Positions 27,001 through 29,734 of a stretch of DNA of 29,734 nt are shown in pieces. The position numbers are program-made. Each line of letters starts with the position of its first letter. Within the stretch, counting starts at the first letter, position 1. The stretch comes from Chthoniobacteraceae bacterium (GTDB lineage: Bacteria > Verrucomicrobiota > Verrucomicrobiia > Chthoniobacterales > Chthoniobacteraceae), in assembly GCA_031409335.1 (NCBI GenBank), contig JANNWY010000301.1, forward strand, positions 1 to 29,734. Direction: 5' to 3'.

Positions 27001-29734
27001 GATCAGGAGACTCTCTCGCACTTTGACCACATCATCGAAGTCGCCGCCTCCGAGCCCGGCGCAGACCTGATCGAAGACACCCCGATCGGTTATGGCCACC
27101 CCATCGGCGAACGCCACGCCCCGCGCTGGATTTGCCGCGTGCCTAAATCCTAAATCCTAAATCGCCGTGCCCCTCTTTGAACGTCCCCCGCTCGAAACCC
27201 TCGCCTCCGCCAAGGACCGCTGGACGCCGCTTTACCTCGAACATGGGCGGCTCGAAGTCGATGACTCCAGCGTGAAATGGATCGGGGCCGATGGGCTGCT
27301 CTGCCGCATCCCGGTTGCCACCTTCGCCGAAGGCAACGCCACCCTGCGCGACCAGCCGCTCTCCTTTGCCACGCCGCGCGACTTTTCCCCGCACCGCGTG
27401 AAACGGATCGAAGCCGGACAGCCAGAGTGAGTGGGCAGGGCATGATACTGCTCCCAGAAGGCTGCGGTCGTCGAACGGTGTTCCGAGGCCAACCGCCGGT
27501 GCAAAACGTCCGTTGCCTGATTCGCCGCCGTTCCCTATTCTCCGCGTCATGATCACCATCGAAGAAACGCTCGTTGTGGATGAGGAAGGACACGCCGTCA
27601 TCACGCTGCCGCCCTCGGTGAAGCCGGGACGGCATCGGGCGGTGGTGCAGATTGAGGAGGTGGCGGATGCAGCGTCCGCAAAGCCCGCGGCTCCGAAGGC
27701 GGGATGCTTGAAGGGCTTTTGGATGGCGCCGGACTTTGATGCGCCGCTCGAGGAGTTCCGGGAATACATGGAATGAAGCTGCTGCTCGATACGCACGCGC
27801 TGATTTGGTTTCTGGAGGATGACCCGAAGCTCACCGTGGCGGCGCGGGATGCAATCGAGGATGCGGCGAATGAGCGTTGGGTGAGCACAGCGAGCGGATG
27901 GGAGATGGCGATCAAGTCGCAGATTGGGAAGCTGGTGTTGCCAAGGCCGTTCGAGGTGCTCTTTCCCGGCGCGTTGGAAGCACACGGCTTTTTCATCCTG
28001 CCGATTCAGCCACGGCATTTGCACCGCTATCACTCGCTGCCATTGCATCACCGCGATCCTTTTGACCGGCTCCTCGTCGCGCAGGCACTCGCGGACGGGT
28101 TTGGCGTCGTCGGCAACGATGCGGCATTCGATGCCTACGGCGTGACGCGAATATGGTAGCGGCGCAGTTCAGCGCGTGATGGCAGAGCGGGACATTTCAA
28201 ATCCTAAATTCCGATGCCCCTCTTCGAACGTCCCCCGCTCGAAACCCTCGCCTCCGCCAAGGATCGCTGGACGCCCCTCTACCTCGAACACGGGCGGCTC
28301 GAAGTCGATGACTCCAGCGTGAAATGGATCGGGGCCGATGGGCTGCTCTGCCCCATCCCCGTCGCCACCGTCTCCGCGCTCATCCTCGGCCCCGGCACCA
28401 CCGTCACCCACGCCGCGATGAAGGCCTGCGCGGAATCTAACACGCCGGTCTGCTGGACGGGCGCGGATTGCCTGCGCTTCTACGCCTTCGGCCTCGCGCC
28501 GAATCACACCAACGAAATGCCCCGGCTCCACGCCACCGCCTGGGCCGACAAAAAGCGGCGCACCCAGATCGCCCGCCGCATGTTTCGGATGCGCTTCCCC
28601 GATGTCGATGTGGAAAGCCGCAGCGTGAACGAACTGCGCGGCATGGAAGGGCTGCGCGTCCGGACGCTCTACGGCCAGCTCGGGCTGGAGCATGGCGTGA
28701 CGTGGAAGGGACGGGATTACGACCGGACCAATTTGGACGTGTCCGACCCGATCAACCGCGCCCTCTCCGCGGCCAACGCCAGCCTTTACGCCCTCGTCGC
28801 CGCCGTCGTCTGCTCGCTCGGTTACGTGCCCAGCCTCGGTTTTGTCCACGATGGGGGAACGCTCCCGTTCATCTATGATGTGGCCGACCTCTACAAACAC
28901 CTCACGAGCATCCCCGCCGCGTTCCTCGCCGCCCGGCAGGATCCCGGCAACGATGGCGAACTCGTGCGCACCTTGCTCAAAGAGCGCGTCGAAGAGCAGC
29001 GCATCCTCCAGCGCATCCCGAAGGATTTGGCGGCGCTCTTCGACACCACCGAAGCCGCTCCCGCCTCCGCCACCGATCGCCCGCCCTCCGCCACCGCGTG
29101 ATGCGGGCGAGTTCTTTGAAATCCTAAATCCTAAATCCTAAATTCGATGACCGTCATCATCGCCCACGACACCCCGCCCGCCATCCGCGGGATGCTGAAA
29201 CGCTGGTTCATCGAACCGCAGCCGAACGTCTTCGTTGGCACGCTGAACCGGCGGACGCGGGATAAAACGCTGGAATACATCAAGCGGAACGCCACCGGCA
29301 TCGCCCTGCTCATCGTCTCCACGGAAAGCAACTGCCAGGGTTTCAAGATCGAGACGCACGGCGAAGTGCGCCGCCGCGATGCCCGCCTGTCCGGACTCTG
29401 GCTCGTGGCGGAAAAGTGGGTGGATGCGGAGGCGATTCCGTTCTGAAAATGGGTGGAAGTTTGTGCTTTCTGATCCGTAACTCTTTGGTAGTTCAGAGTT
29501 TTCCCCACCCGCGTGGGGATGGTCCGACGCGGCGCATGGGAAGCGGCTGATTGAAGCAGTTTTCCCCACCCGCGTGGGGATGGTCCGAGTCGGAGCCATC
29601 GATGCACGGCAGCGGCTTCGTTTTCCCCACCCGCGTGGGGATGGTCCGGGCTCGATCGGAGCCTTTGTGTGAACGGCGAAGTTTTCCCCACCCGCGTGGG
29701 GATGGTCCGAATGTTTCCACGCCAGACCAAATCG

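Follow-up and report, generated by a model that had tools for sequence, protein, structure and literature searches.

How does a chromosomal gene come to carry a toxin-antitoxin pair at its border and, beyond that pair, a second, truncated copy of its own end? The question is raised by a type I-E CRISPR operon (cas3-cas8e-cse2-cas6-cas7-cas5-cas1-cas2-array) on contig C301 of the Chthoniobacteraceae genome G000, a metagenome-assembled genome of 7.94 Mb in 326 contigs (62% GC, 98% complete, 3% contamination). The window, i.e. the whole stretch of DNA analysed, comprises 29,734 nucleotides, and all features given below lie on its forward strand. The metagenome runs that contain this DNA come from freshwater sediment, and the lepA gene of the genome has its nearest matches among Chthoniobacterales/Terrimicrobiaceae-type Verrucomicrobiota.

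Positions 27152-27329 of the window recur at 28199-28376 with 92% identity over 178 nt. Between the two copies lie the DUF2281 and PIN genes named in the initial annotation of this genome. True homology stops at 27322/28369, at cas1 codon 52, and the final 7 nt are a chance extension. The left repeat (27152-27322) thus consists of the spacer and a truncated, undecayed cas1 start (codons 1-52, GTG at 27167), and the right repeat (28199-28369) of the spacer and the start of the intact cas1 (28214-29101; PF01867, 7e-14). The latter is 68-92% identical to 80 homologues and would have served as the conserved homology anchor. Upstream lies the intact resident cas5 (26458-27153; Pfam Cas_Cas5d, 2.5e-37), which adjoins cas1 in most homologous loci, and downstream, as context, cas2 with the first CRISPR repeats (29147-29734). 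The cargo encodes a DUF2281 antitoxin-like protein (27549-27776; PF10047, 2.1e-6) and a PIN (VapC-like) toxin (27773-28159; PF01850, 9.2e-13); a scan of 27100-28300 returned 0 promoters and 0 terminators. The cas5-cas1 spacer holds a run of AAATCNN heptamers (27145-27165). A single such unit is found 5' of the intact cas1, and another run 5' of cas2.

The initial annotation was accurate for the repeats and the two genes, but it overlooked the DNA at the start of the cargo. Beyond an illegitimate joint at 27317-27323, the cas1 stub continues in frame into the last 35 codons and stop of a foreign cas5 (27323-27430), giving an 87-aa chimeric ORF (27167-27430). An HMM built from 74 cas5 C-termini and run against 151,613 six-frame ORFs detected this tail with E=6.5e-6, second only to the real cas5, the next match having E=1.5. 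The tail is 46-49% identical to the cas5 ends of three other loci (L050, L062 and L004) and gave no blastp match with the end of the cas5 of C301 itself. The order within the cargo is therefore foreign cas5 end, DUF2281, PIN and cas1 start. Since the truncated cas1 start runs into this foreign tail, the toxin-antitoxin cargo was, judging from its sequence, excised from a different cas operon, with one cut falling within cas5. In locus L079, a distant proxy for the donor, cas5 carries CCACC before the position of the joint and is identical at 63 of 108 nt after it, so that a 5-nt microhomology is possible as judged from this one proxy. The stub itself differs from the intact gene at 9 of 156 nt over codons 1-52. 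Seven of these differences are synonymous, one lies in the start codon and one changes a residue, for which 80 of 80 homologues agree with the stub; on both counts the stub is an undecayed, working allele.

Since the genome was assembled from a metagenome, the structure might have arisen by tandem joining of alleles from co-occurring strains. The 326 contigs, the 3% contamination and the fact that several contigs end in repeat copies are in keeping with such an artefact, as is the depth of 6.0 for the joint contig in run X2 against ~11 beside it. We nevertheless regard this as extremely improbable. Contigs of runs X1 and X2 span the C301 joint with 0 differences, crossing it by 47 + 301 nt (both runs belong to one study, and X1 is perhaps the source of the genome), an overlap of 5-6 nt cannot join 31-mers, and the same build is found in independent assemblies. 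In run X4, from another study, the cas5 tail and the beginning of the antitoxin gene are present, differing at 13 of 332 nt, on a contig that stops short of the joint. A contig of genome G029 breaks off at codon 53 of cas1, only 3 nt away from where the C301 joint lies, which is suggestive only.

The arrangement at cas1 is one of many. The initial annotation had listed 101 repeat pairs by self-comparison (at least 80% identity, repeats of 100-800 bp, 0.3-12 kb apart) and reported the same build at about 40 places. With the same thresholds the pattern was recovered, but the count was 94 direct pairs on 55 contigs versus 10 inverted pairs, both 0.3-12 kb apart. None of the 94 was at least 98% identical, which may reflect assembly collapse. 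Looser thresholds, with genes called by a simple in-house caller, gave 183 pairs, of which 35 lay inside one gene, 31 were paralogous and 58 had no gene of at least 150 aa. The remaining 59 gene-linked pairs comprised 35 in which the gene is preserved, 9 with the opposite layout, 12 internal and 3 whole-gene pairs, i.e. the gene-preserving layout accounts for 35 of 44 gene-end pairs (35 vs 9, p=1e-4). Hand curation kept 31 of 50 listed pairs, at 29 sites. The other 19 (paralogous domains, signal peptides, heptamer repeats, three whole-gene pairs including copR, and two further array members) were dropped before the codon and omega tests. Together with sites at short genes, the 29 hand-kept sites make the earlier figure of about 40 a fair one. 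Repeats measure 70-830 nt and are spaced 0.8-9.8 kb apart, within the >30 bp repeats and <20 kb inserts specified in PMC2853133. At clpX the repeat pair is split over contigs.

The same looser screen applied to 1.6 Mb from four relatives found 8 pairs, 2 of them with the layout (one being a PEP-CTERM tail), where the G000 rate predicts 37 and 7 (p=1e-8 and 0.03, respectively). In 1.0 Mb around lepA from mostly other phyla it found no pairs. G000 is richer in such pairs than these samples, which are small and not random.

Are the two copies at each site the products of a local duplication, or two alleles? Differences between them fall mostly on third codon positions (137/117/396 for positions 1/2/3, summed over 31 pairs), in agreement with the initial annotation. 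Omega is below 0.3 in 20 of the 31 pairs, and 13 pairs reject a null model in which one copy evolves neutrally. For many pairs, then, both copies evolved as working genes in two lineages. Examples are priA, lepA and argF, with synonymous to non-synonymous codon ratios of 36:3, 13:0 and 7:1. The alternative is duplication of the target in place at insertion, through break repair or a transposase, after which one copy would decay and the other would now and then be converted. Double-strand breaks were proposed in the accessible part of PMC2853133, transposases lie beside two joints, and the one-copy-neutral null is unrejected in 18 of 31 pairs. In addition, omega is at least 0.45 in 7 of 31, so that these pairs also fit duplication followed by decay. 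The earlier conclusion that in-situ decay plays no part thus holds for priA, lepA, argF, FGGY, glgE and others, but not for every pair. As a general account we consider in-place duplication quite unlikely, given the three ratios above, the undecayed cas1 stub and the scraps of foreign flanking genes at joints, which target duplication would not be expected to leave.

Such scraps were found at 4 of the 31 joints (C301, C325, C136 and C99), where homology is present on one side only and the other joint lies inside an unrelated, broken donor gene. On C325, lepA and cargo precede an argF end that is fused to a lepA end, after which come cargo and argF. The two stubs share TCGGCG at their seam, and the chance of an overlap of at least 6 nt is 0.003. 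In G003, the closest relative, DNA following lepA matches the start of the argF contig (90% over 420 nt). Behind argF, G003 has the tail of the cargo gene seen on C325, a loose linkage of the two genes. On C136 an SPFH gene that is whole in G002 (92%) and G003 (89%) breaks off at the joint, at position 120 of a 176-position profile. Two nucleotides are shared at this joint, and an adjacent 9-nt match to the ABC-F allele of G002 is 1 nt out of register. Same-genus alleles resemble the C136 stub less (77-81%) than they resemble the intact end (80-86%), so that the stub may be the donor's. The initial annotation had taken the DNA between the repeats as the incoming unit; at C136, where the cargo is less foreign than the stub, this view fails. 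At C99 a PAS gene that G004 has in full (91%) is reduced to ~30 codons, which form the end of the cargo and lie 98 nt from the stub. Three joints allowed microhomology to be assessed, in each case through a proxy donor: 6 nt at C325, 2 nt at C136 and the possible 5 nt at C301.

Break points vary even within one gene (cas1 codons ~14, ~31 and 52; priA ~620 and ~700-728; lepA ~411 and ~537), and a search for an att-like motif at the 31 joints found none, the best candidate being CGCCG in 13 of 31 (p=0.03, uncorrected). These results support the lack of a fixed att site and point to variable slots. They also weigh on a further alternative. Islands made by integrases are flanked by att sites and have the same gene-preserving layout, with a replacement gene end, so that the sites in G000 could be decayed or trans-mobilised integrative elements whose attL and attR remain and whose integrase was lost or is supplied from elsewhere. 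The genome does have 20 recombinase matches (18 tyrosine and 2 large serine recombinases, with the resolvase family PF00239 left out genome-wide), and prfC, one of the target genes, is a known ICE target. All 20 matches lie outside the cargoes, however, and no integrase was found among the 214 of 301 called cargo proteins that were scanned, so the earlier observation that the cargoes carry no recombinase of their own stands. The cargoes are, moreover, cut inside genes and placed at ~29 unrelated target genes. Integrase-made islands and cis-mobilisable remnants have a fixed crossover core; in G000 break points vary and share no motif. The variable break points are enough for this reading to fail, and we hold it to be very unlikely.

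The contents of the cargoes are mixed. Toxin-antitoxin or defence Pfam families were detected at 18-19 of 41 regions, close to the half estimated before, and the remaining cargoes consist of secreted or metabolic genes. Transposases occur in 2 cargoes of the 41 regions (C33 and C35), in each case near the joint. GmrSD was found at one site only, and R and M genes, which form the inserts in PMC2853133, are not the rule here.

The same gene ends were examined in other genomes. Eighty metagenomic cas1 loci were fetched, of which 77 were assessable: cas5 adjoins cas1 in 67, a 225-nt non-coding insert separates them in 1, and genes lie between them in 9. The cargo at these nine loci is of three kinds, namely Phd-PIN, MNT-HepT and an ORF without Pfam match that we read as Fic-like. 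Stubs are present in six of the nine (two of these loci being near-identical) and correspond to cas1 codons ~14 or ~31, or to the cas5 end; the three loci that lack a stub would be donor-type loci. Stubs of the priA end, with other cargo and other break points, were found in at least 4 of 101 family genomes (12 weak matches were left out). The intact priA is adjacent in two of the four and was not found in the assembly in the other two. In the sampled family loci, priA never had trpG as a neighbour, and lepA never had argF. Among lepA loci across GTDB, 0 of 80 had a stub among the matches listed, which include few close relatives. In a phylum sample of 400 other genomes, 41 had a match; none of these showed a second cas1 start at E<=1e-6, and the 29 loci inspected were free of stubs. 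The genes next to FGGY and prfC change from one same-genus genome to the next; in G003, for example, HDOD lies directly before prfC. A DNA search of four same-genus genomes (71-90% complete) found no exact empty site at 8 sites, where the same-genus DNA carries different cargo or the contig ends.

Taking these data together, the best explanation in our judgement, and probably the correct one, is that host recombination stacked alleles at these sites and left them as scars, by one homologous crossover and one illegitimate joint. The slot beside a conserved gene holds different cargo in different relatives, and incoming DNA from a relative may match the recipient on one side only (for example at cas1, not at cas5). 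At C301 this follows from the conservation of the two genes: cas1 is 68-92% identical among homologues and the cas5 types are only ~40% identical to each other, hence only one side could pair. RecA would make a single crossover in the conserved gene. The other end would be sealed by an illegitimate joint, commonly where a few bases are shared. This could happen directly, as in homology-facilitated illegitimate recombination (HFIR), or by circularisation of the fragment followed by a single crossover. With the joint placed within the shared gene, the two alleles of its end would both be kept, one whole and one as a stub, without any duplication having taken place. Of the possible products, the layout that leaves the gene whole would alone tend to persist, presumably helped by selection on the cargo, and the stubs and donor scraps would later be trimmed by deletion. 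One case of trimming was observed, in a lepA stub (genome G080) that has lost ~410 nt internally. A stub would also provide a short second arm for ordinary recombination, from which arrays could grow.

Entry of the DNA would presumably be by transformation. ComEC, DprA, MutS and RecJ are present in G000 and Ku was not found there; ComEC and DprA matches also occur in 10-11 of 14 control genomes. The predicted gene set permits transformation without showing it. Several observations run against the proposed origin of the scars, among them the 7 pairs of high omega. Transposases lie near the joint at C33 and C35, and the cargo side of most joints is non-coding even though 87% of random points are genic; in genomes G081 and G098 the joint abuts a toxin stop codon. 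The mostly non-coding cargo-side joints mean that trimming, selection or a sharper mechanism is needed in addition.

The initial annotation had proposed that the cassettes move as circles formed between the repeats. In a broader form, the cargo and its stub would move repeatedly as a self-portable unit, as a circle or as linear DNA with the stub as second arm, and this would account for most of the sites. Unconventional circularizable structures, which are defined by demonstrated circles, carry cargo between long, near-identical direct repeats without a recombinase. The cargoes in G000 resemble them in lying between long direct repeats without a recombinase, but the copies are diverged, and neither a circle joint nor an empty-site joint was found in run contigs among 15 of 19 joints listed, a search that is blind to crossovers within a 61-nt identical core. 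The tidy joints at gene boundaries would suit old units that had been passed on repeatedly, and arrays of cassettes exist at C280, L051 and G098. A G010 contig holds two priA stubs with identical 105-nt ends, for which an assembly repeat is an equally good explanation. The single case that supports later movement is the pair of cas1 loci L051 and L079. They share the same joint (cas1 codon ~31, then the Phd-PIN promoter) and antitoxins that are 84% identical, and they differ in their left neighbours and in their cas1 genes, which are 78% identical (ranks 26 and 43 of 78). The pair does fit a finished unit that would have moved later by means of its stub. The L079 stub belongs to the cas1 clade of L051, however, so a later replacement of cas1 in L079 may also explain it.

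Several results tell against repeated movement as the general case. Old, inherited stubs predict an excess of amino-acid change next to the joint, and no difference was found between the halves near to and far from it (109N:164S vs 131N:169S, p=0.40). The C301 cassette had no match in plasmids, nor its joint pattern in viral contigs. Above all, four joints end in a broken donor gene, which implies that the units were first cut illegitimately; circles formed between repeats cannot explain this origin, and the portable model as a whole cannot create the first joint. We therefore consider it unlikely that portable cassettes account for most sites, and the circle proposal is not supported in the form given. 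A bolder idea is likewise doubtful: once formed, a stub could act as a heritable homology arm, making cargo and stub a recombinase-free mobile unit able to enter any relative that has the gene, regardless of the genes around it, and to stack in arrays. If this were true, ordinary gene ends would be a genome-wide, integron-like platform for toxin-antitoxin and defence genes in this lineage, with the difference from integron cassettes that the repeats are ends of protein-coding genes.

Allele stacking with a single crossover has relatives in the literature, and the build itself is already in print. The available portion of PMC2853133 describes, as 'insertion with long target duplication', RM genes without a mobility gene between direct repeats of 30 to ~420 bp, often spanning a start or stop codon and leaving the gene intact, mostly in naturally competent species; it also hypothesises a cycle of insertion, amplification and release. 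The sites in G000 are alike in having direct repeats, a gene kept whole and inserts mostly without a mobility gene. Compared with what that portion reports, they differ in their cargo (toxin-antitoxin, other defence, secreted or metabolic genes, rarely RM), in their number (~29-40 sites in one genome) and in their copies, which are 80-97% identical and often two working alleles rather than a duplicated target. The donor flank scraps, too, indicate one-ended recombination rather than cutting by the cargo. Empty sites were demonstrated there, whereas no exact one was found for G000.

HFIR combines one homologous end with an illegitimate joint, usually at 3-10 bp of microhomology, according to PMC3240628. 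For E. coli it reports that 56 of 60 clones in which a re-circularised fragment had entered by a single crossover bore a partial duplication, 109-950 bp long. In classical HFIR recipient DNA is usually deleted, not duplicated; in G000 the gene end is present twice, which fits the single-crossover form. The events described there are laboratory events with identical arms, whereas those in G000 are natural products with diverged arms, for which a role of RecA is presumed. A natural parallel comes from the accessible part of PMC5361080, on arrays of T6SS effector-immunity, Rhs and CDI genes formed by HFIR-like sequential displacement. Both have a homology anchor (upstream in those arrays), an old 3' end that is pushed back, repeated stacking and no integrase. 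That part concerns polymorphic toxin loci only, in which the gene end itself is variable; in G000 housekeeping or cas genes act as anchors, some by their 5' end and some by their 3' end, and they have no relation to the cargo beside them. A literature search in which subscription journals were thinly covered found no description of the build on a genome-wide scale or in Verrucomicrobiota, and none of a genome-wide, mixed-cargo form in that phylum, and the Furuta supplements may hold closer examples. The build is thus known for RM and polymorphic toxin loci, and what is added here is direct evidence on how the joints arise.

Many chromosomal toxin-antitoxin and defence islets lack a mobility gene, and their arrival in a new neighbourhood calls for an explanation. 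The part of PMC13617665 available describes the spread of such islets via recombination at both flanking core genes. The scars in G000 would represent a route that needs only one shared gene, that adds rather than replaces, and that leaves the gene whole. The donor scraps suggest in concrete terms how 'insertion with long target duplication' could come about, the duplicated target often being two alleles. Looking for stubs is also an easy way to locate new defence cargo. The DUF2281-PIN pair of C301 itself is 78% identical to a pair in a Cas12b locus of genome G025. The impact is tempered by the earlier reports of the build for RM and polymorphic toxin loci and by the fact that no movement was observed.

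Contigs assembled from two sequencing runs of one study, X1 and X2, cross the joint in the window, where the cas1 stub is fused to the foreign cas5 end (27317-27323). In X2, the contig that covers window positions 27276-27623 has a depth of 6.0, as against about 11 on either side, and this drop may reflect a second allele. Over the same interval, depth in X1 was without a dip.

A Cas12b (C2c1) locus (L002, G025:C9:73327-76948) contains a DUF2281-PIN pair that is 78% identical to the pair in the window; it lies between the Cas12b effector and a cas4-cas1 fusion, and a DUF2442 gene directly follows the pair. 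At a cas1 locus of another genome (L004/L501, G029:C99), codon 53 coincides with the contig end, 3 nt beyond the window's break point, and the remainder of the gene was not found in the G029 assembly.

The cas spacers of the window hold AAATCNN heptamer runs at 27145-27165 and 29119-29139. Runs of this type number 81 across the genome, and many homologous loci have comparable heptamers upstream of cas1. The runs could possibly serve as microhomology donors.

The initial annotation had placed a whole DGR as cargo at C149 30010-39698 (L102), and our analysis bears this out: the DGR and a SMEK gene are bracketed by two response regulators, one cut at its C-terminus and the other intact. The DGR parts comprise a reverse transcriptase, bAvd, a template-like FGE piece and two NACHT-FGE-sulfatase genes. 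Elsewhere in the same genome, a 3' end that we call clpX-like, a label resting on sequence without a Pfam call, is duplicated across contigs C53, C60 and C37 (95% over 393 nt), and is probably an additional site split by assembly. The ends of C53 are identical over 95 nt, and transposase-like genes are present on it.

Stubs of priA were also observed in other genomes. Directly after priA in L248 (G098:C125), a hairpin element of about 200 nt without a gene, that is, a cargo without genes, lies between priA ends (94%). A small contig with ends identical over 105 nt (L249, G010:C185:1-1875) carries a pair of priA stubs together with an ATPase-like gene. This contig may be circular, may derive from a tandem array, or may reflect a repeat in the assembly.

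In the window, the ORF at 15586-18084, which is absent from our own gene calls, encodes FMN-binding, 4Fe-4S and ApbE domains. An 80-nt palindromic repeat at C182:29326-29405 (L106 1327-1406) has many copies in this genome and in G002.
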